Positions 3,931 to 37,296 are shown, numbered from the stretch's first letter. The stretch is 64,000 nucleotides of DNA from an uncultured Clostridium sp. (GCA_900554175.1 USGK01000003.1:25790-89789), one strand, 5' to 3'. The notes: generated from the letters alone by a model not told the origin. Numbers and translations are program-made.

Positions 3931-4314
3931 TTATTTAGTCTTACATTCTTTATTTTTCTTGCTTTTACTGATTTTTTCTGACCATTTGTCTATGTAGTAC
4001 TTTCTTATTATTGTTAAATTCAAAAACATTCTTCCGACAAATACAACTATTGCTGCTAAATATATATCTACATCTAATTTATTGCCTAAATAAGTAAGTA
4101 GTATTGATAAGATACTATTACAAAAAAATCCAGAAATAAAAACTTTAAAATCAAATTCTCCTTTTAAGACACCTGTAATTCCTCCAAATACAGAATCTAA
4201 TGATGCAATTATAGCTATTGCTAAATAGCTTGAATATGTATAAGAAATTATTGGTGCATTCACTCCAACTATAGCACCTAAAATACATCCTATAATTATT
4301 GCTATAAATACCAT
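3931..4314 (-). CDS. sbp: Small basic protein Sbp (DUF1290-like small membrane protein)
   Basis: About 127 aa, two to three TM helices. Conserved position between ylxX and ftsA, as in Bacillus (divIB-ylxW-ylxX-sbp-ftsA-ftsZ). Start moved to the internal Met (MVFIAIIIG) to avoid a 59-nt overlap with the upstream gene. Confidence 0.6.
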   Translation of the reverse strand: MVFIAIIIGCILGAIVGVNAPIISYTYSSYLAIAIIASLDSVFGGITGVLKGEFDFKVFISGFFCNSILSILLTYLGNKLDVDIYLAAIVVFVGRMFLNLTIIRKYYIDKWSEKISKSKKNKECKTK

Positions 4315-4315
4315 T

Positions 4316-5056
4316 TTATTTAACCTCCTCCATATACTTTGTTTCAAAATTACCGTCAAACTTTGCAATCTCAACTTTATTGGATTTTTCTATTGTTGCT
4401 TTTATTCCTGTTGTACTAAGTTGCTCCGCATAACCATTTTTTCCAAATATGCTACTTTCAAGATAAGAGCTATTTCCAATTGCTTTAATTTGATATTTAT
4501 CTTCTCTTAAATATTTGCTATTTACTTTTATTGCATCTCCTACATCAACAAAATCTGTAGTATTAACTACTCTTTCCCCATTAATAGATATAGCTTCGGC
4601 CCCTGCATCTTTTAAATAATTTACTATGCAGTATAAGTCTTCGGCTTTAATTGGTATAATTTCTTCATCTTCACTAAGCTCGTTTTGTTTTTTTTCTTGT
4701 AAAGTTATTGTAACACCTTCACCCTTAACATCTGTTATACCAAGAGCTAATTTTAATTTTTCAAGTTCTATTTCTAAATTTTCTTTTGTCTTATCGTCTG
4801 TTGAACTTGTTTTTTTATACGAATCAAGAGTTTCCTTTGTTTCATTGTATTTTTCTTTTGTTTCTTCATATTTTGATTTCCAATTTGCAAGTTCTGTTCT
4901 CAAATCTGTTTCTCTCATTGTGTCTAATTCTGTTTTCTCTGTTTCACTTACAACTTTAAATTGCATAAAAATACTCATAGCTAATAAGAAACATACTATT
5001 GCAATAGTTACAGAAACAATTATCTTTCCTTTCTTTATTTTCATATATTTTATCAT
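4316..5056 (-). CDS. DUF881-family division-cluster protein (YlxX-like)
   Basis: 246 aa. N-terminal TM, coiled-coil region and conserved C-terminal domain. Paralogous to the next gene; conserved synteny downstream of divIB. Confidence 0.6.
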   Translation of the reverse strand: MIKYMKIKKGKIIVSVTIAIVCFLLAMSIFMQFKVVSETEKTELDTMRETDLRTELANWKSKYEETKEKYNETKETLDSYKKTSSTDDKTKENLEIELEKLKLALGITDVKGEGVTITLQEKKQNELSEDEEIIPIKAEDLYCIVNYLKDAGAEAISINGERVVNTTDFVDVGDAIKVNSKYLREDKYQIKAIGNSSYLESSIFGKNGYAEQLSTTGIKATIEKSNKVEIAKFDGNFETKYMEEVK

Positions 5057-19698: not shown

Positions 19699-20157
19699 TT
19701 ATTTTTTATATAAATTTAATATTCCGTTTTGTATATCTTTAAAGTAAAAAATTTCAATTATTAATATTACAATAAATATTATAGTCATTACAGTTATTCT
19801 CTTTTTAAATATTTTGTCGTCAATTTGTTCAGAATTTAAGTTTCCTATTTGAATTGCTAAATATGGCATTACTATAAAGCCATTAAGTGGTATAAAAAGA
19901 AATTCAATTATTCTTCTTACTGGAGCAATCATATTTTTATTTGGATATTGAACTCCACTAGACGATATATTAAAAATTATTGTTGTTATAATAGTTAATA
20001 TAATTAAATTTATTACAATATACTTAATTTTTATATTTTTTTCTTTTATATTTGTTAATGAATTCCATGACCATACAATTAAAACAATCCATAATGCTAT
20101 CTCAATTAAATAAATTATAGTTGCCATATATTCCTCCACAAAACTATTTTCTCTCAA
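19699..20157 (-). CDS. Hypothetical small integral membrane protein
   Basis: 152-aa ORF with four predicted TM segments between mutL and miaA. The start may be the internal Met at ~20127, which would remove the overlap with mutL. Confidence 0.4.
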   Translation of the reverse strand: MRENSFVEEYMATIIYLIEIALWIVLIVWSWNSLTNIKEKNIKIKYIVINLIILTIITTIIFNISSSGVQYPNKNMIAPVRRIIEFLFIPLNGFIVMPYLAIQIGNLNSEQIDDKIFKKRITVMTIIFIVILIIEIFYFKDIQNGILNLYKK

Positions 20158-29237: not shown

Positions 29238-30170
29238 TTATTTATTTTTTAACTCTAGAATTTCTTCTTTAGTAAGTCCTGTTGCTTGTTCTATTAATTC
29301 TATTTCTATTCCTAGTTTTAGCATTTTCTTTGCCGTTGATATTTTTTCTTCTTTGATCCCTAGGATTTTTCCTTCTTCAAGTCCAAGATTTTTACCTTCT
29401 TCAAGTCCAAGATTTCTACCTTCTTCAAGTCCAATACTTTTTCCTTCTTCCAATCCTGCTGTTTTTGCATGTTTTAAAGCTGCCTGTTCTTCCATTTCTG
29501 ATAACATTCTTATTTCTGCTAGCCTTTTGACTTCTTCCTCTCCTGTTAATACATTATATTCTTCGTCTGCTTCTTTTATTATTTTACTTTCTTTTTTCGC
29601 CATATCGATTAGATCGCCCCTCTCTCCATCAATAAATGCTAACCATTGATTTACTTTTTCTTTCATATCTAGTGATATGTTTTCTCTGAATTTTTTTAGT
29701 TCAATATAATAGTATTCTGCAAAGTTATTATATTTATAATTTCTGTGTTTTTCTAAAACTCTTACCGTTTTTGTTACATAGTCCTGTAACTCAAATAAAT
29801 TATAATCTAATAATGCTATTATTATTACCTTTTTTAGTCCTTTATAGTATCTTCCTATGTTTCTTTGTTCTGTTATTTTCTTTGATGCATAAAATGTCGT
29901 TCTTTCTTCTATATTTTTATAATCGTTTAGTTGCATTTCTATATCTACTATCTCTCCTGAACTCAATTCTACTTCTAAGTCTAGTATTCCATATTTTTCT
30001 TCTAATACTATCTGTTCTAACCTAGCATCATGTTTTACTTGTTTTATTTTTACATTTTCTTCTAATACTGCATCTAAAAAATCTTTTAGAAATCTTTCGT
30101 TTCCTCTTTTACTAAAAAATGCTTTAAATACAATATCATTTTTTAATTTTAATTTTTGTGTATTATTCAC
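29238..30170 (-). CDS. Rpn-family recombination-promoting nuclease / putative transposase (PD-(D/E)XK, YhgA-like) with a C-terminal tandem-repeat tail
   Basis: N-terminal DIVFKAFF...ILDLEVE...IVDIEMQ motif set typical of Rpn/Transposase_31. C-terminus carries 4 x LEEGKxLG repeats. Confidence 0.8.
   Translation of the reverse strand: MNNTQKLKLKNDIVFKAFFSKRGNERFLKDFLDAVLEENVKIKQVKHDARLEQIVLEEKYGILDLEVELSSGEIVDIEMQLNDYKNIEERTTFYASKKITEQRNIGRYYKGLKKVIIIALLDYNLFELQDYVTKTVRVLEKHRNYKYNNFAEYYYIELKKFRENISLDMKEKVNQWLAFIDGERGDLIDMAKKESKIIKEADEEYNVLTGEEEVKRLAEIRMLSEMEEQAALKHAKTAGLEEGKSIGLEEGRNLGLEEGKNLGLEEGKILGIKEEKISTAKKMLKLGIEIELIEQATGLTKEEILELKNK
29371..29466. repeat. Four 24-bp tandem repeats inside the Rpn gene (encode the LEEGKxLG repeats)
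   Basis: CCTTCTTCAAGTCCAAGATTTTTA / CCTTCTTCAAGTCCAAGATTTCTA / CCTTCTTCAAGTCCAATACTTTTT / CCTTCTTCCAATCCTGCTGTTTTT. Confidence 0.85.
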
Positions 30171-30490: not shown

Positions 30491-32185
30491 TTAATAATTT
30501 TTTAGATAATACTTAAAATCTGTATCATGTGTTATTTTATATGAGCCATATCTTTCACGCGCAAGGGCAGTATAATAAGCTGCTTTTAATTTTTTATCAG
30601 CATCTCTCATGTACTTATACATATCTCCTTTTGATGTATCAACACTTGTTTGTGAAACTATACTTGTATATGAACCTGTGTATATATTATCTTTGTTAGC
30701 TCTTATTGGAAAATAATATGTTGTATTATCTCCATCTTTTATGTAATGTTTTTCAAAGTCAAGTTTAAATACACCCTTTAAATTATTATCTAGATTAATA
30801 TCTCTTGCATTTGCTCTATGATACTGGTTATCAATATCAGTAGCAATATAAATAGAATTTTCGTCAACAAATTCTTTTGTTGTAGTATTTGCACTAACAG
30901 CATATCCATTATATTTTTTTGTTCCAATATCTAAACCTTGTAAGAAACCTATAACAGATACATTATTTTCTATAGTCTCCCAATCTTCTTCAGATATTTT
31001 AGGCATTGCAAATTGTATATCCTTTTCTGAATAGTTACTAAAACCAGCAATAGCTGCCGATAAATTAGTTTCTATTGTGTGTCTTATTACCGCCTTACGA
31101 TGTTGATTAAAATCTGAATCTGAATCTTGAATATATTTACCATCTATCTTTTTAAAGATTTCATAATTTCCATAATCCTTCATATTAACAAATTTTTTTG
31201 TCTCATTATCATAATATCCAGCATCTGATGATTTAAGGTCACTAAGACCATAAGCCCCTCTAATTTTATTAATAAACTCAAAAGCTTCTTTATAGTAATA
31301 ATATGCACTTTTATTTTCCTCTATAGCATTATAATATTTTTTATACAAATCTTCATTTTTTTCTTGAGAAACCTGGTTCACTTTTGTTCCATTAACAAGG
31401 TGAAAAACCTTACCCTTCCCATCACCATCACTCGTATCCAAATAATATTTTGTCCCATTAATTTTAACATAATTAGTAAAATCATTAACAATATACTCTG
31501 AGGAATTTGATTTCGGATAACCCTTATTAGAAATTTTCACATCACCATTTTCATAAAACTTAACTCCATCATATTCATAATAATTGCCATTTAAATCCAT
31601 TCCAGATTTAATTCCATCCATCAAATATCCCGAATCATCGACATAATTTTCTTGTAAAAATCCTTGAATCCTTATATAATTATCTAAAGAATATGTTATT
31701 ACAAAATCATCTCCATTATTTCTTTGATACCTACAACTATAAAAAACATAAGACTTAATTCCTTCTACTAATGCACCATCTGTATAAGTAGAGTCACTTT
31801 TAACATTTTTCTGAGATAATGTATTGTAATATTTAGAATATATATAATACCCATCATACATAGTATACACAACAGCTGGAACATATTCTTGCATAACCGA
31901 TGCTTTATATCCACTTAAACCGAAACTTGATTGTAATGATGCTAAATAAGTTGATGCTGATGCTTCGATGTTTTCCATTTTTGCAGTTACTACATCATTT
32001 TCTGTATCAACTATTGAATTTGCTTGGTATACTTCTAAAGCATCATAAACGCAGTCTACTAAACGCCTATCATATATTGCTTGGTTTCTTATTGTGTTTA
32101 TTTGTGCATCTAGATATAGTCCTAAAACTATATCGATTGGTAAAATTATTAAAAGAAAAATTATTGCCAAGTGCTGAATTTTCAT
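30491..32185 (-). CDS. Large Tyr/Asn-rich secreted or membrane-anchored protein, 564 aa, terminal gene of the Tad-like locus (candidate pilus-associated adhesin or tip component)
   Basis: N-terminal hydrophobic anchor/signal (MKIQHLAIIFLLIILPIDIVLGLY), Tyr-rich extracellular body. Co-directional and contiguous with the pilin-like genes. Confidence 0.4.
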   Translation of the reverse strand: MKIQHLAIIFLLIILPIDIVLGLYLDAQINTIRNQAIYDRRLVDCVYDALEVYQANSIVDTENDVVTAKMENIEASASTYLASLQSSFGLSGYKASVMQEYVPAVVYTMYDGYYIYSKYYNTLSQKNVKSDSTYTDGALVEGIKSYVFYSCRYQRNNGDDFVITYSLDNYIRIQGFLQENYVDDSGYLMDGIKSGMDLNGNYYEYDGVKFYENGDVKISNKGYPKSNSSEYIVNDFTNYVKINGTKYYLDTSDGDGKGKVFHLVNGTKVNQVSQEKNEDLYKKYYNAIEENKSAYYYYKEAFEFINKIRGAYGLSDLKSSDAGYYDNETKKFVNMKDYGNYEIFKKIDGKYIQDSDSDFNQHRKAVIRHTIETNLSAAIAGFSNYSEKDIQFAMPKISEEDWETIENNVSVIGFLQGLDIGTKKYNGYAVSANTTTKEFVDENSIYIATDIDNQYHRANARDINLDNNLKGVFKLDFEKHYIKDGDNTTYYFPIRANKDNIYTGSYTSIVSQTSVDTSKGDMYKYMRDADKKLKAAYYTALARERYGSYKITHDTDFKYYLKNY

Positions 32186-32271: not shown

Positions 32272-32790
32272 TTATTGTGCTGTAGTTGTAACAACTCCAG
32301 AGCTAGAAGCAACTATTGCTCCTGTTGTACTGTTTTTACCTAAGTACTTTGTTAATTGTTGAAATATTGTAGTATTTGTGCTTGTTACTTTTGCTGTAAT
32401 AATATCCCCTTCCTTTAAAAGAAGTGTTCCATTATTATTATTTAACATATCAAGTATTTGTGTTGTATAATATGTTGTGTATGTACTTTTACTAGAAACA
32501 GTCCCTTCTGATTGAATTGCTTTTTTTGAAGCATTTTCATCTAATCTTTGTAATTCCATTTCTACATCGAAAGAATTACCTGTTGCTGATATTTCTTTTA
32601 AATATGCCTCATAATCAGAATATTTTAATTTTCCTGTTGTTCTAATTGTATCTACATATTGGTTTGTAGATGATTCTACAGCTACTTGGGCTGCCTTGTC
32701 AGTTTTTCCTGCCATTGTTATTAATGGATAACCAAACATTATTACTGCAGCAACAAATATTGCTAAAATTACAGATGCGTTATTTTCCAT
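32272..32790 (-). CDS. Pilin-like protein 6 of the Tad-like locus (class-III-signal-like N-terminus MENNASVILAIFVAAVIMFG)
   Basis: Conserved MEN..S.. leader plus about 20 hydrophobic residues, then a Ser/Thr-rich C-terminal domain. Paralog of the neighbouring genes. Confidence 0.5.
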   Translation of the reverse strand: MENNASVILAIFVAAVIMFGYPLITMAGKTDKAAQVAVESSTNQYVDTIRTTGKLKYSDYEAYLKEISATGNSFDVEMELQRLDENASKKAIQSEGTVSSKSTYTTYYTTQILDMLNNNNGTLLLKEGDIITAKVTSTNTTIFQQLTKYLGKNSTTGAIVASSSGVVTTTAQ

Positions 32791-32803
32791 CTTAAAGACC
32801 TCC

Positions 32804-33487
32804 TTAATTATTTATTTTTTCAATATAAGTAATAACTCTTGATTCTTTTTTGTTTGCGTCTGAAACATGATCACCACTATAGCTAGGATCACGTGATGGG
32901 TCACTCTCTCCTAAAGGATAAGTGTCTGCTTCATAGTAAACTCCTGTGTATTCTATAAAAGTTTTATCTTTAAGTAATTCATATAATCCTGCCTTTAAGG
33001 TATTGTTTATATATTCTTTATCATTCTGTGCAGTTGGTATATCAAATACTAAAATATAATCATTGCTATTAATTATTTGATCTCCACTTGATTTATATTT
33101 TTGTTCTTTCACTACTGTCGCTCCATTTTTTAGGCAGTTTGCGTAATCTTCCAACTCTTTACCTGAGTCAAACTTCTCATAATTTGTAGAATTTCCATTT
33201 CCTAATTTTATTACAACAGTATAATTCTCTTTATAAACTCTATAAAGAGAATTTGATACTGTATCAATTCCAACTGTTCTTTTCTCATCTGAACTACTTA
33301 TATAGTTTATATATTTAGTTTTCCCATTTTCATCTTTAGTTGTTGCAGTATCTACCTTTTCCTTTGATAAGATTAAATCTTCTAGGTCATTTCTAAAGGT
33401 TGAGAAGGATGATAAAGTTAATGTAAGTGCTAACATAAATATTAATACTGCTGCTGCCATATATAGAGCTTCTACAGAATTTTCCAT
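32804..33487 (-). CDS. Pilin-like protein 5 (leader MENSVEALYMAAAVLIFMLALTL)
   Basis: Same leader architecture; 227 aa. Confidence 0.45.
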   Translation of the reverse strand: MENSVEALYMAAAVLIFMLALTLTLSSFSTFRNDLEDLILSKEKVDTATTKDENGKTKYINYISSSDEKRTVGIDTVSNSLYRVYKENYTVVIKLGNGNSTNYEKFDSGKELEDYANCLKNGATVVKEQKYKSSGDQIINSNDYILVFDIPTAQNDKEYINNTLKAGLYELLKDKTFIEYTGVYYEADTYPLGESDPSRDPSYSGDHVSDANKKESRVITYIEKINN

Positions 33488-33525
33488 GATTTATCATCCT
33501 TTCTTTATTATAAATTATAACATAT

Positions 33526-34047
33526 CTAATTTTGATAAATATTAATTTTAGAAACTAATCCGTCTTTATAGTTGCACTCAACAATATAATTTTCACCTGT
33601 TTTAACAGCAAGCTGTGGTACGGTTGCCAAAGCATTATACTTCTCAAGAGTACAACTTGCATAATCTTTGATCCTCTTTGCAGTGTCTTTACCTCCCGCA
33701 TTAGACGAAATTATTTCACCATTTGAATTTCCTGATATAACAATATAAGAGCTATTATAATTTAATGGTTTATAACATACCATTACATAGCTACCTTTTC
33801 CATTAGTAGCTGTAGCCTGATTGGTAGCAATAACTTGTTGTATTAAAGAATTAACTCTTGAACCTGCTACACTATCTCCTTCATATGCTGTGAATTTTGC
33901 ATTAAATGATTGTATTTCTTGTTCACTTAAATTTGTATTATCTGTTACATTTCTTACATTATTTACCACTATTAATCCTAATGATATTATAACTATCGCA
34001 AGTAGGATTGCCCCTGCAATAATAAGTGCTTTAGAAGCATTCTCCAT
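33526..34047 (-). CDS. Pilin-like protein 4 (MENASKALIIAGAILLAIVIISLG leader). Its N-terminal 53 aa differ at only 3 positions from protein 3.
   Basis: Leader and first ~160 nt are almost identical to 34069-34449; the C-terminal domain is unrelated. 173 aa. Confidence 0.55.
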   Translation of the reverse strand: MENASKALIIAGAILLAIVIISLGLIVVNNVRNVTDNTNLSEQEIQSFNAKFTAYEGDSVAGSRVNSLIQQVIATNQATATNGKGSYVMVCYKPLNYNSSYIVISGNSNGEIISSNAGGKDTAKRIKDYASCTLEKYNALATVPQLAVKTGENYIVECNYKDGLVSKINIYQN

Positions 34048-34068
34048 TTTTTATTTCTCCTTCCAAAA

Positions 34069-34449
34069 TTATTTCTCAATTGTAATTTTGTTAACTAAAG
34101 CGTTATTATATGTAAGTGTTACTTTGTATGTTGATCCTGTAGCTATTCCTGTAATTTCTTCTGGTTTAGCATTATCCTGTGTACCATATTTAAAAGTAAC
34201 TTGTTTATCACTATTACTTGCATTAGAAGAAATAGCAGTTTGAAGCAGTGCTTTTACCTTTGTTCCTGATACGTTTGTTCCTTCATATGGTGTAAATTTT
34301 GCATTAAATGCTTGTATTTCTTGTTCACTCAAGTTTGTATTGTCTGTTACATTCCTTGTATTGTTTACTACTATTAATCCTAATGATATTATAACTATTG
34401 CAAGTAGGATTGCCCCTGCAATAATTAATGCTTTTGAAGCGTTTTCCAT
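34069..34449 (-). CDS. Pilin-like protein 3 (MENASKALIIAGAILLAIVIISLG leader). Short, 126 aa; candidate major pilin.
   Basis: Class-III-like leader (K-A | L hydrophobic), small mature size, Thr/Ser/Asn-rich. Confidence 0.55.
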   Translation of the reverse strand: MENASKALIIAGAILLAIVIISLGLIVVNNTRNVTDNTNLSEQEIQAFNAKFTPYEGTNVSGTKVKALLQTAISSNASNSDKQVTFKYGTQDNAKPEEITGIATGSTYKVTLTYNNALVNKITIEK

Positions 34450-34538
34450 AATAATTCCTCCTTATATTTTTTCTTTTATATTTTTCTAGATATAAACTCA
34501 TTATGGATATAATTCATATCTAACATAAAAATCTTTTG

Positions 34539-34970
34539 TTATATGCTCTTTTGTTCAAACAACATATATTTTATTTGTTTTGAATTTGAATGATATTCTA
34601 TTTTTGTACATTCAAATTTTATGTTGCTATAATACTGTACAAATGTTGTCATTCCTCCATTATAAAGTGTTTCCATACTATAAAGTGTATCATTGTCTGT
34701 AATTTTAATTTCAACCTTTATTGAATTTGTTTCATTTTCAATGTAATTTCCATTTTTATCTTTTTCTATTCTATTTAATTCGTTGTCATTTACTGCCCTA
34801 TTTACAATTGTAGCTACATCTGAACCATATAACTCTTTTTGGTAATAAGACTCATATTTAGAATTAAATTCTTTTATTTTGCTATATTCATCTTTATAGT
34901 TGTAATACTTTATTGCTAGCAGAATTAAAACAATTATTACTGCTGTAATAAAAGCTAATATTTTTTTCAT
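34539..34970 (-). CDS. Pilin-core-like protein with a different leader (MKKILAFITAVIIVLILLAI). Shares the post-TM EFN(S/A)K(Y/F)E motif with the MENASKAL paralogs.
   Basis: IKEFNSKYESYYQKELYGSDVATIVNRAVNDNE aligns to EVSEFNAKFEFYENKELTPNDIVSIMNLVVENN of protein 2. Confidence 0.45.
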   Translation of the reverse strand: MKKILAFITAVIIVLILLAIKYYNYKDEYSKIKEFNSKYESYYQKELYGSDVATIVNRAVNDNELNRIEKDKNGNYIENETNSIKVEIKITDNDTLYSMETLYNGGMTTFVQYYSNIKFECTKIEYHSNSKQIKYMLFEQKSI

Positions 34971-35073
34971 TTATTGACAGCTCCTTACTTATTATAACAT
35001 TTTATGTTTTTTTTTGCAATATTTAATAAAATTTTTAAACAGCATTTATACACTAAAAATATTTTTTATTTAC

Positions 35074-35595
35074 TTACCATTCATCATGCTTATGTGTAGT
35101 AATTTTCATTTTATTTACTTTACCATTTTTATATTCATTTCTATTTATCGAAAAAGTAAAATAATACAGTAAGTCATTCTTTTTTTCGTAAGTAACATTG
35201 CCATTAGAATCTTTAACCTTCACCTTAATATCTGACATTATAGTTAAATTTTTTATAAATTGATCACTATCATAACCTGTTTGAATAAAACCGCTAGTTG
35301 GAGCATTAGCCTCTGATCCAACATCACTGTCATAATAATATCCTATATTTTTTCTTGATATATTATTTTCAACAACTAAATTCATAATAGATACAATATC
35401 ATTGGGAGTCAATTCTTTGTTTTCATAAAATTCAAACTTTGCATTAAACTCACTAACCTCTTTTTCACTCATTCTTGCCAACATTTTTTCTGAATGATCA
35501 TGATAAACACCGTATAGATACACACCAAACGATGCTACTATCATTGTAATAAGAACACCACCTGCAATTAACAGTGCTTTTGACGCATTTTCCAT
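35074..35595 (-). CDS. Pilin-like protein 2 (MENASKALLIAGGVLITMIVASFG leader)
   Basis: Leader plus EFNAKFE motif; 173 aa. Confidence 0.5.
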   Translation of the reverse strand: MENASKALLIAGGVLITMIVASFGVYLYGVYHDHSEKMLARMSEKEVSEFNAKFEFYENKELTPNDIVSIMNLVVENNISRKNIGYYYDSDVGSEANAPTSGFIQTGYDSDQFIKNLTIMSDIKVKVKDSNGNVTYEKKNDLLYYFTFSINRNEYKNGKVNKMKITTHKHDEW

Positions 35596-35613
35596 ACTAT
35601 ATTTATCCTTTCT

Positions 35614-36486
35614 TTATTCAATTTCACCTGTAAATTCAAAAGTTAACTCGTTTACTTTTCCAGTAGTATCATCATATTTTAAACTTGTGCATTTAAATTT
35701 TGCTTTTGTGAATTGAGAATATTCATAATATTGATACATCTTAATACCATTATCGTTTAACATGGAAAGATATTGCTCTTTTACATTTTCGTACGTTTTA
35801 TTTTTCCCTTTTAAATTTTCACTGTATGTACTACTTTGTGTAATTGATTCATATTTAAGAATAGCATTAAGCATTTTAGTAATCTTTTTATTTTCATCAG
35901 TACCTGCATCGCTTACGATCTCCCATTTTTTCGTCGTATTATTATAGCTACAAATTTCTTTCAAAATTATTTTATCTATATTTTTCGTTAGTCCTTTTAG
36001 ATACTTACTATCTTTTTCTAACTCTCTTGCGTTTTTATTAAACTTTTCTAAACTTGATTCGTTATTTTTATTCAAATAACTATTCTCTTCTATAAGCTTA
36101 TTTTTAGATTCATCTAATAAATAAAAATTTCCATCATAGCTTAATTTATTTTTTGCATCATCATTTTGATTACCTTTCCACAAAATAATAGAAATCTTCA
36201 CCGGATTAGCTTTAACATCGTTTCCTTCTGAAGTTTCACTAGACAATCTTTCATTGTAATCAATAATCTTATTAGATAACGAAATCAACTCATACCCTGC
36301 AACATCGTTTCTATTATACCTTGTAAACTGTTCGTTAAATTTAGTTTTATCTTCAGTCATTTTAAGTTCTTCTTCAGAAGCATAATAGTTTGAAATATTT
36401 CCTTTAACTAATAAAACTAAACTTACTAAAATAATAAGTATAAGTATTCCACCTGCAATAAGCAAAGCTTTTGATGCATTCTCCAT
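35614..36486 (-). CDS. Pilin-like protein 1 (MENASKALLIAGGILILIILVSLV leader), 290 aa
   Basis: Leader plus FNEQFTRY motif; largest paralog. First pilin-like gene after the platform genes. Confidence 0.5.
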   Translation of the reverse strand: MENASKALLIAGGILILIILVSLVLLVKGNISNYYASEEELKMTEDKTKFNEQFTRYNRNDVAGYELISLSNKIIDYNERLSSETSEGNDVKANPVKISIILWKGNQNDDAKNKLSYDGNFYLLDESKNKLIEENSYLNKNNESSLEKFNKNARELEKDSKYLKGLTKNIDKIILKEICSYNNTTKKWEIVSDAGTDENKKITKMLNAILKYESITQSSTYSENLKGKNKTYENVKEQYLSMLNDNGIKMYQYYEYSQFTKAKFKCTSLKYDDTTGKVNELTFEFTGEIE

Positions 36487-36504: not shown

Positions 36505-37296
36505 TTAAGATATACTTGACATAGAGCTTGACATACTTGTAAGACCTATGTAAACTAATGGCACAATTAAGTACCCAACAAACATACAAACCATTGGTGC
36601 GAAACCTAAGATTTTTCCATACAATGATTTTCTAGATATTAATTTTTCATTGGTTTGTTTTCTTTTATCTTGGTAATATGTTCTTTCTGAATCTAACTCA
36701 TCGAAAGCTTCTCTGATTGGAATCTTTTCAACTGCTGCTTGCAAACTTTCTACAATTCTTATAAATAGTTGGTAATTTGTATCATTTTTTAAAACCTCTA
36801 GTGCTTCCCATGCTCCTGCTTCATAGTTGTTTACGCACCTTGCAATTGGCTCTCTAAATATGTTTGAATATCTTTCAAGCCACTCTAAAATAATTTCAAC
36901 ATTAACCCTTTCTATTCTCATAAGCATAAGTATTATTGTTTGGAATTGCATTACTTCATCTTCCATTTCCATTTGGCGTAATTTTAATTGGAACATCATT
37001 ATCCAAATTGGTGACATATATCCCAAACACATTGTTATACATGCAAATAAGATTTCATACCAAGCTAATACTTCAGCATTTATAATTTGTAACTTATCAT
37101 AAATTTTATCTGTTGCTTTCTTTATATCGTCATCTTTTGCTCCCGCATATTCATTTGATTTTACTAATGCTGATTGAATTTTTTCTTTTGTAATATCTTT
37201 TTTTCCTTTAAACTTGTCTAAAAACACATTTTGCCTTGCAGTTTCTTCTTCTGCTGTTTTTTGTTCTTTATCAGATAAACCTCCGCAGTAAATCAT
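36505..37296 (-). CDS. TadC/GspF-family (T2SSF domain) pilus platform membrane protein
   Basis: TM - ~110-aa cytoplasmic helical domain - TM architecture (WYEILFACITMCLGYMSPIWIMMF ... ILGFAPMVCMFVGYLIVPLVYIGL). Position after the ATPase and tadB-like gene. Confidence 0.5.
   Translation of the reverse strand: MIYCGGLSDKEQKTAEEETARQNVFLDKFKGKKDITKEKIQSALVKSNEYAGAKDDDIKKATDKIYDKLQIINAEVLAWYEILFACITMCLGYMSPIWIMMFQLKLRQMEMEDEVMQFQTIILMLMRIERVNVEIILEWLERYSNIFREPIARCVNNYEAGAWEALEVLKNDTNYQLFIRIVESLQAAVEKIPIREAFDELDSERTYYQDKRKQTNEKLISRKSLYGKILGFAPMVCMFVGYLIVPLVYIGLTSMSSSMSSIS

Follow-up and report, generated by a model that had tools for sequence, protein, structure and literature searches.

We analysed a 64,000-nucleotide stretch of DNA (hereafter the window) from an uncultured Clostridium sp. 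(GCA_900554175.1 USGK01000003.1:25790-89789), in which six small membrane proteins beginning with Met-Glu-Asn, here called the MEN proteins, are encoded on the minus strand between positions 32272 and 36486. They belong to a 13-gene operon (g01 to g13; 43225 to 30491, minus strand) that encodes a CpaB-like SAF protein, two ParA-like proteins, an ATPase and a polytopic membrane protein, followed by seven small proteins with an N-terminal anchor and a large one. The machine is Tad-like in its layout and its motor, and most of its parts are new families. The MEN proteins are quite probably the filament subunits of this Tad-like machine, with g09 and g10 most likely serving as two major-type subunits with hypervariable heads and g06, g07, g11 and g12 as four minor-type subunits. 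More tentatively, we read them as uncleaved subunits of a highly diverged Tad-type (type IVc-like) filament operon in an uncultured, spore-forming gut Clostridium.

Four of the six open reading frames (ORFs) start with MENASKAL, namely g06 (35614-36486, 290 amino acids [aa], MENASKALLIAGG...), g07 (35074-35595, 173 aa, MENASKALLIAGG...), g09 (34069-34449, 126 aa, MENASKALIIAGAILLAIVIISLG...) and g10 (33526-34047, 173 aa), while one starts with MENSVEAL (g11, 32804-33487, 227 aa) and one with MENNASVIL (g12, 32272-32790, 172 aa). In each protein, about 20 hydrophobic residues directly follow the N-terminal head. The near-identical leader on six proteins, which a first-pass annotation of the sequence had reported, was confirmed in its ORFs, coordinates and starts, and the back-translated MENASKAL pattern gave 4 matches against 0.00 expected from 100 shuffles. 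Among all ORFs of the 64-kb window, over which further MENASKAL or MENxS starts were sought, none beyond the six combines a MEN start with a hydrophobic stretch. A Shine-Dalgarno sequence (GGAGG or AAGGA) is located 6-9 nucleotides 5' of every MEN ATG and an in-frame stop lies 1-7 codons 5' of each MEN start codon, indicating that these starts are the true N-termini and that a longer leader is impossible. The synonymous codons differ among the four MENASKAL genes, indicating that MENASKAL is selected as a peptide and conserved at the protein level. The residues M1-E2-N3-A4-x-K6-A7-L8 are invariant in four paralog groups, and A7 is invariant across the clade and, in all six MEN proteins of the window except g12, stands just before the hydrophobic stretch. 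The overall identity between paralogs is 17-35%, in agreement with the earlier statement that only the leader is conserved; the exception is the g09/g10 pair, in which the first ~57 residues are nearly identical and the heads differ. A short motif following the transmembrane (TM) segment, (E)FNAKF.(Y/F)E, had also been noticed as common to several proteins, and it is carried by five of them, the four MENASKAL proteins and g08 (34539-34970), and is missing from g11 and g12. In distant relatives this motif is extended as Y-(D/E)-(G/N)-x-x-V-S-G-S-(E/Q)-V.

Comparison of the g09 homologues (n=63) revealed an identity of 100% at residues 1-8, 86% in the TM segment, 56% at residues 29-78 and 29% in the head (residues 79-126), which is what a buried assembly helix with an exposed, diversifying head should show. 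The AlphaFold2 (AF2) model of g09, with a predicted local distance difference test (pLDDT) score of 85 overall and 89-93 over the first 20 residues, has a helix at residues 2-35 that is joined by a flexible linker to a small alpha/beta head, in which a helix packs on a 4-5-stranded sheet. The subunits have a single TM segment in the first 50 residues, with 20-25 mainly hydrophobic residues, and are at most 350 aa long, as the size and helix part of PilFind prescribes. The N-terminal helix is common to seven paralogs, which are positioned right after the CpaF-like ATPase and the membrane protein. This operon context and the combination of an invariant helix with a hypervariable head lend support to the first-pass view of a pilin set with a conserved N-terminus and divergent domains, and the MEN proteins are accordingly best described from their sequences as putative paralogous pilin-like subunits with a common assembly signal. 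The same data bear on another explanation, in which the segments would be Sec signal peptides cut after the hydrophobic segment by signal peptidase I, releasing soluble secreted proteins. In its favour, the hydrophobic stretch is N-terminal and belongs to small proteins whose C-terminal domains are polar. However, a basic n-region is lacking, the stretch of about 20-22 residues has membrane-spanning length, a conserved polar segment without an obvious A-x-A site follows it, and a Sec signal that is discarded would not be expected to be as extremely conserved as residues 1-28 are. Sec signal peptides are therefore scarcely credible here and were set aside on segment length and conservation.

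The family is widely distributed. The ATPase g04 retrieves at least 566 species-representative genomes, and we compared 86 close loci (L001-L086), comprising the 80 best genome loci and 6 metagenome loci. The 80 best genomes are all metagenome-assembled genomes of uncultured gut 'Clostridia/Clostridium sp.' from human, chicken, rabbit and ruminant samples, and the 13-gene order is kept in 80/80 genome loci and in the 6 metagenome loci. The major-type gene is duplicated (g09/g10) and reaches up to three copies in relatives, and g10 has 6867 homologous protein clusters, none of them named or carrying a Pfam domain. Distant modules were reached via an ATPase search of a representative library (369 clusters at E<1e-30, all about 600-660 aa), followed by a profile search and context look-ups. 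The ATPases of these modules are only about 32-37% identical to g04, and the modules keep the order of SAF protein, two ParA-like proteins, ATPase, 550-690-aa membrane protein, small anchored proteins and g12/g13-like proteins.

The N-termini of the major subunits in the distant modules are informative about the nature of the head. They begin with MSNAQKA(I/L)VMAAG in Paenibacillus, with MTETPQKALLLGAA in L093, with MENSTKAIIIAAS and MENATKAILIAAS in L095, with MSHGLK(L/M)(L/I)LIAAG in L089 and L096, and with MERAVEFLKIGAV, a MERAVEFL form, in L092. The first-pass annotation had proposed that MENASKA is a class III signal cut at K-A↓L by a peptidase of the PibD, FlaK or TadV kind; in this explanation an unlinked A24 peptidase (PilD/ComC/TadV-like) would cut after A7, leaving a mature start of LIIAGAILL. 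The FlaFind-type archaeal pattern, [KRDE][GA][ALIFQMVED][ILMVTAS], is short and degenerate. It fits the boundary K(-2)-A(-1)-L(+1)-I/L(+2) in g06, g07, g09 and g10 and in 67-100% of their orthologues, as well as in the Paenibacillus and L093 homologues, and it is found in 9/73 g11 orthologues, in 0/85 g12 orthologues and in none of L089, L092 and L096. The two class III patterns gave a divided answer: the FlaFind-type pattern fits four of the six proteins and not g11 and g12, and the PilFind rule fails for essentially all family members. The latter ([GAS]-x4-[DE], then 14 uncharged residues) was re-implemented from PMC3244431 and gave 0-1 matches per paralog group (19-86 sequences) and 0 in distant relatives, with no acidic residue at +5; the mature protein left by the proposed cut would carry no charge near its N-terminus. 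Besides the archaeal-type fit, cleavage is favoured by the invariance of A7 in the clade, by the placement of the ATPase on the Tad/archaeal branch, and by documented unlinked or shared prepilin peptidases, all MSH loci being without one (PMC6668835).

Several observations stand against such cleavage. Class III leaders are hydrophilic and variable in length, invariably end in Gly or Ala, and are followed by 20-25 hydrophobic residues, often with Glu5, before cleavage by an A24 peptidase (PMC10191384; PMC3244431). The polar head, by comparison, extends 6-8 residues from Met in all distant modules, far as their ATPases have diverged, with K6 (or E6) kept, and it is the most conserved segment of the proteins. 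Fixed length and the strongest conservation are not what one would expect of a disposable class III leader, given the length variation on record (PMC10191384). Across the distant modules, A, L, M or F stands at the proposed -1 position, with L, M or F in the majors of L089, L096 and L092, and g12 is without a site; a Gly/Ala site at this position is therefore not a family feature. The leader is, moreover, net neutral or acidic rather than basic. Cleavage after A4 (A/A/G in three lineages) was also considered and was ruled out by a P at that position in L093.

No candidate prepilin peptidase accompanies the operon. For L001-L006 and L087-L096, the Pfam gene tables were without a Peptidase_A24 match, and a search for GxGD membrane ORFs in the 64-kb window and in L001-L086 with their surroundings (+-10 kb) was negative. 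In all, about 95 loci and the window were examined with neither an A24 hit nor a GxGD membrane ORF, the rest of the genome lying outside this search. The search applied a GxGD regular expression to all window ORFs and to the multi-TM ORFs from the 86 loci and the window, which were mostly antisense artefacts. In a Pfam scan of two small multi-TM window ORFs, 19699-20157 had no match and 3931-4374 matched DUF1290, and TadV is absent from the 13 conserved genes and their flanks. The proposal of a class III signal was consequently not supported, given the lack of a linked A24 peptidase, the failure of the PilFind rule, the variable -1 residue and the fixed length of the head. We lean tentatively toward an uncleaved, leaderless pilin-like N-terminus, and regard cleavage by an unlinked peptidase as less likely.

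Analysis of the remaining subunit orthologues indicated that the paralogs differ in their heads. The g06 orthologues in nearly all related loci begin with MENASKAL(L/I)MAGG. In g11, position 6 is acidic (E or D in 60/70 orthologues) and position 9 is often K (40/70). The g12 protein represents another N-terminal class, its orthologues starting with M-[GS]-D-[TS]-... (D3 in 71/81) and containing F-x-F-P-L in the helix, and g12 homologues are present in the distant modules. The last gene, g13 (30491-32185, minus), encodes a 564-aa protein with an N-terminal TM helix (MKIQHLAIIFLLIILP...), whose orthologues range from about 450 to 1240 aa. The N-terminus type of g12 and g13 consists of a short acidic head, a hydrophobic helix with F/L-x-F/L-P, an acidic stretch and a motif resembling TEFVN. 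In L096 (14957-18925), the g12/g13-type N-terminus is found on two large proteins of 597 and 724 aa, and this similarity of starts suggests that g13 may be an enlarged g12-type subunit. The seventh small protein, g08 (minus strand, 143 aa), is a paralog with a basic N-terminus, MKKIL, followed by a TM segment; it carries the motif EFNSKYESY and a C-terminal hairpin in common with g06 (BLASTP E=0.003 across the C-terminal 26 residues). It may be a non-polymerising, membrane-tethered member of the pilin set. In almost every related locus that reaches far enough, g08 is kept at about 128-159 aa. The bitopic proteins g01 (MATNPMQRKARNS...), g08 (MKK...) and g13 (MKIQ...) have ordinary basic N-termini, which indicates that the acidic MEN or M-G-D head is a distinct, selected signal. 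The seven small proteins and g13 have no Pfam or NCBIfam match at E<0.001; for the seven small proteins, Flp_Fap and TadE gave no match at E<1 in either database, and E-Y does not occur in their sequences. Overall, 11 of the 13 operon proteins are without family annotation, and a likeness to known families is limited to the ATPase and the CpaB-like protein.

The motor of the machine is encoded by g04 (38606-40579, minus), a secretion ATPase of 657 aa from the CpaF/TadA branch that carries a TM helix (MFNIILGLAVVALMVILVIYFI) at its N-terminus and an N-terminal extension of ~260 aa. A hydrophobic N-terminal segment is present in 92/105 full-length family representatives. When the single g04 sequence was compared with the PDB using phmmer, CpaF was the top match (7e-8). 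A profile of the ATPase family that includes more distant relatives matched CpaF at 1.2e-29, FlaI at 2.8e-18, archaeal GspE2 at 8e-16 and VirB11 at 1e-10, with PilT, PilB and GspE ranking after VirB11; this ranking assigns the family to the Tad/archaeal branch within the type IV filament superfamily. The best NCBIfam match of g04 is TIGR03819 ('TadA family conjugal transfer-associated ATPase'; 1.6e-9, 37 bits against a cut-off of 373), and its matches to both Pfam T2SSE and TIGR03819 are under the curated cut-offs. Judged by these matches, g04 is a distant member of the TadA/CpaF extension ATPases. Only 1383 clusters among 1.8 billion proteins are related to g04 at E<1e-3, indicating a compact and distinct family.

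The three genes preceding the ATPase gave marginal or weak family matches. The first gene of the operon, g01 (42146-43225, minus), encodes a membrane-anchored SAF-domain protein of the CpaB/RcpC-like type, which matches Pfam SAF with 21.7 bits against a cut-off of 21 and NCBIfam TIGR03177 (CpaB) at E=1e-6, under its cut-off, and is found in all related loci. The second gene, g02 (41443-42126, minus), encodes a 227-aa soluble protein with only weak YqeC matches, possibly a degenerate P-loop or ParA-like (TadZ-like) protein, and its position is kept in all related loci and in the distant modules. The third, g03 (40597-41430, minus), encodes a soluble 277-aa protein weakly assigned as ParA/MinD-like (TadZ/CpaE-like) through a Pfam CbiA match at E=0.0058, under the cut-off, and its position is conserved across the related loci.

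The g05 gene (36505-38572, minus) occupies the platform position and encodes a polytopic all-helical membrane protein. It is a single ORF of 667-701 aa in 73/86 related loci, and it is split in the window (37271-38572, 433 aa, and 36505-37296, 263 aa) and in 10 other loci (L019, L023, L026, L029, L040, L052, L054, L058, L067 and L077) at an identical codon and linker (...YTEPTTDYDL(I/L)-GG-L(S/T)...). The shift site in the window is CTG CGG AGG at about 37283-37291 on the minus strand, within the overlap of the two halves at 37271-37296. In most split loci one extra C produces CGG in the 0 frame and a stop within a few codons, with the second half in the +1 frame, and the split in L052 looks like +2/-1. 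CGG is the rarest codon of the window (3/18,651), one of the three being the g05 shift site. The second half is without a Shine-Dalgarno sequence, and the split loci occur at scattered positions in the ATPase tree. The split may reflect either programmed +1 frameshifting at a hungry codon or recurrent TadB/TadC-like gene fission. Comparison of g05 with known platform proteins gave negative results. Single Pfam scans of 37 and 15 orthologues found no T2SSF domain, phmmer found no PDB match, and neither did profiles built from the close set of 37 and the diverse set of 15 orthologues. A platform protein should contain an internal duplication, and hhalign of the N-terminal against the C-terminal half of g05 found none (probability 1.4%). 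The AF2 model, all-helical and of low confidence (pLDDT 57.6), was too poor for a fold search. The agreement of g05 with TadB/TadC is limited to gene position and polytopic helical nature. Neither Pfam nor NCBIfam yields a match for g05, whose 6628 homologous clusters are annotated 'hypothetical'.

The distant modules differ from the window copy in their surroundings. In L087, L088, L091, L092 and L094, which derive from Paenibacillus genomes and metagenomic contigs, the related module adjoins conjugation-type genes encoding a VirB4-like AAA_10/TraG P-loop protein, a TraG/TrwB coupling protein, a Peptidase_M23 protein, a D12 methyltransferase and ParA/ParB. Several distant modules are then followed by a ~1100-aa DUF5704 protein and by SLH or Cu_amine_oxidN1 proteins, and L095 also contains WXG100 genes. 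The conjugation-type neighbours, seen in Paenibacillus and in two metagenomic contigs, together with TIGR03819 as the best match of the ATPase, make a role in cell-cell contact for DNA transfer possible in those relatives.

These neighbourhoods also bear on the explanation that the MEN proteins are simple bitopic N-in membrane proteins, accessory or periplasm-like components of a Tad-related secretion or DNA-transfer machine like the uncleaved pilin-like FlaF/FlaG, and never polymerise. A channel-type role is conceivable because distant modules lie next to genes for an M23 hydrolase, a coupling protein and a VirB4-like AAA_10 protein. In addition, the platform protein cannot be recognised, and no likeness of the MEN proteins to solved pilins was detected. 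By contrast, an invariant helix with a hypervariable head and duplicated majors is a trait of exposed polymer subunits, and seven paralogs with one N-terminal signature beside an extension-type ATPase form the standard layout of a pilin set. The MKK start of g08 further indicates that a plain anchor looks different in the same operon. A purely accessory, non-polymerising role is therefore improbable.

In the mechanism that we propose for uncleaved filament subunits, the MENASKA head and the ~20 hydrophobic residues would direct insertion of each subunit as an N-in/C-out bitopic membrane protein. The N-terminal amine and K6 would face the inside, and the helix is followed by an acidic segment. 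The anchored ATPase and g05 would pull the subunits out of the membrane and pack their N-terminal helices together as the core of a filament on the cell surface, with the variable heads displayed on the outside of the filament. Minor or tip positions would be taken by g06, g07, g11 and g12, and the large g13 protein would be a distal or anchoring component. The 7-residue polar head would be retained as the mature pilin end, with no prepilin peptidase required. We speculate that E2 and K6, one helical turn apart, might neutralise each other and replace the pairing of Glu5 with the N-terminal amine, and that E2, D/E6 and K9 in g11 and D3 in g12 might provide complementary charges. In the mature N-terminus of Flp, VTAIEYGL, the distance to the hydrophobic core is about the length of the 7-residue head.

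A number of points weigh against uncleaved filament subunits. No filament has been seen for the operon, and the charge-pairing role of E2 and K6 is inferred only. The AF2 model of g09 has no significant match to a solved pilin (Foldseek against the PDB, best E 1.9), and neither a single pilin sequence nor the 63-sequence profile has a PDB match. The g05 protein is not demonstrable as a T2SSF platform by Pfam, PDB profile, hhalign or AF2. The K-A-L-[IL] boundary fits the archaeal FlaFind-type pattern in 4/6 proteins, and A7 is invariant in the clade. Finally, all type IV filaments that have been characterised rely on a prepilin peptidase, which may be unlinked or shared (PMC6668835; PMC10191384). 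The broader proposition, a type IV filament lineage without a leader peptide or prepilin peptidase, in which a non-T2SSF polytopic protein and an anchored ATPase replace the motor/platform pair, is one that we consider somewhat doubtful.

Among known systems, the Tad/Flp pilus is similar to the MEN operon in having an ATPase nearest to CpaF, a CpaB-like SAF protein as the first gene, ParA-like genes before the ATPase, and a polytopic membrane protein after it that is sometimes split in two like TadB/TadC and is followed by small proteins with an N-terminal helix. The operon also has no retraction ATPase and, its host being monoderm, no secretin. In contrast to Tad/Flp, the MEN set has no Flp motif (G↓xxxxEY) or Glu5 and, on the reading that we favour, no leader peptide, and no TadV is present at the locus. 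The subunits, at 126-290 aa, carry folded heads, whereas Flp has ~60 aa; the platform-like g05 has no detectable T2SSF domain, and the ATPase has a membrane anchor and a 260-aa extension. All Tad-family matches are under the curated cut-offs, with the exception of SAF, a marginal pass. The archaeal type IV pilins processed by PibD, FlaK or EppA share the K-A-L-I boundary with four of the proteins and have no Glu5 requirement, and FlaI and GspE2 are the second-closest relatives of the ATPase family. They differ from the MEN system in that the host here is bacterial, no peptidase is linked, the site is not kept in paralogs or distant modules, and the head is acidic or neutral and of fixed length.

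Tad-like loci without a prepilin-motif protein have been described in C. kluyveri, C. cellulolyticum, C. bolteae, Clostridium sp. L2-50 and D. hafniense; these retain a recognisable tadC and tadV, and their tad genes are distant from other clostridial tad genes (PMC3244431). The MEN operon, compared by description only with these loci of Imam et al. 2011, differs in having neither a recognisable tadC nor tadV. The conjugal-transfer neighbourhoods of TIGR03819 are related through the best NCBIfam match of g04 and through the distant modules in conjugative-element-like regions, whereas the window copy is chromosomal, lies among housekeeping genes and has no conjugation genes nearby. In the literature, we found no description of MENASKAL-type proteins, leaderless pilins or peptidase-independent type IV filaments, and none of the MEN-protein family in work on Tad-like conjugative pili of Bacillota.

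The rest of the window, with a GC content of about 27%, consists of chromosomal housekeeping genes, including those for MutL, MiaA, FtsK, SepF, DivIVA, RsmD, MreB, NFACT and a small acid-soluble spore protein (SASP). The SASP gene, of the alpha/beta type as read from the sequence, is located just upstream of the operon at 43712-43915 on the plus strand, with a PF00269 match at the corresponding position in L004 and L005, and it indicates that the host is a spore-former. Beside it, at 44111-45079 (minus), there is a 322-aa protein without a family match, which has a single TM helix and an N-terminus that is very basic and rich in Q and K. Just downstream of the operon, at 29238-30170 (minus), there is a PD-(D/E)XK_2 'transposase' gene whose product carries C-terminal GLEEG(K/R) repeats (a Yae1_N match); a PD-(D/E)XK_2 gene occurs again in L001 (13855-14850) and L003.

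A chromosomal, vertically conserved operon with a hypervariable major subunit suggests an adhesion or colonisation filament in this gut clade, and the operon is likely an adhesion or colonisation determinant and antigen. What is new within this probable Tad-like type IV filament is the pilin family, the unrecognisable platform, the anchored ATPase and the absence of a linked peptidase. Culturable Paenibacillus carry relatives of the module on conjugative elements and offer direct experimental access. If polymerisation without cleavage is true, the prepilin peptidase would not be universal for type IV filaments, and the four-part core of pilin, peptidase, ATPase and platform would be broken. 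The family would then be a large new group of pilins in human and animal guts, with about 6,900 clusters in >560 species, which PilFind, FlaFind, the InterPro signature for class III signals (IPR012902) and probably MacSyFinder-type models would miss. On the conservative reading, the finding is a 13-gene surface-filament operon across hundreds of uncultured gut Clostridia species.

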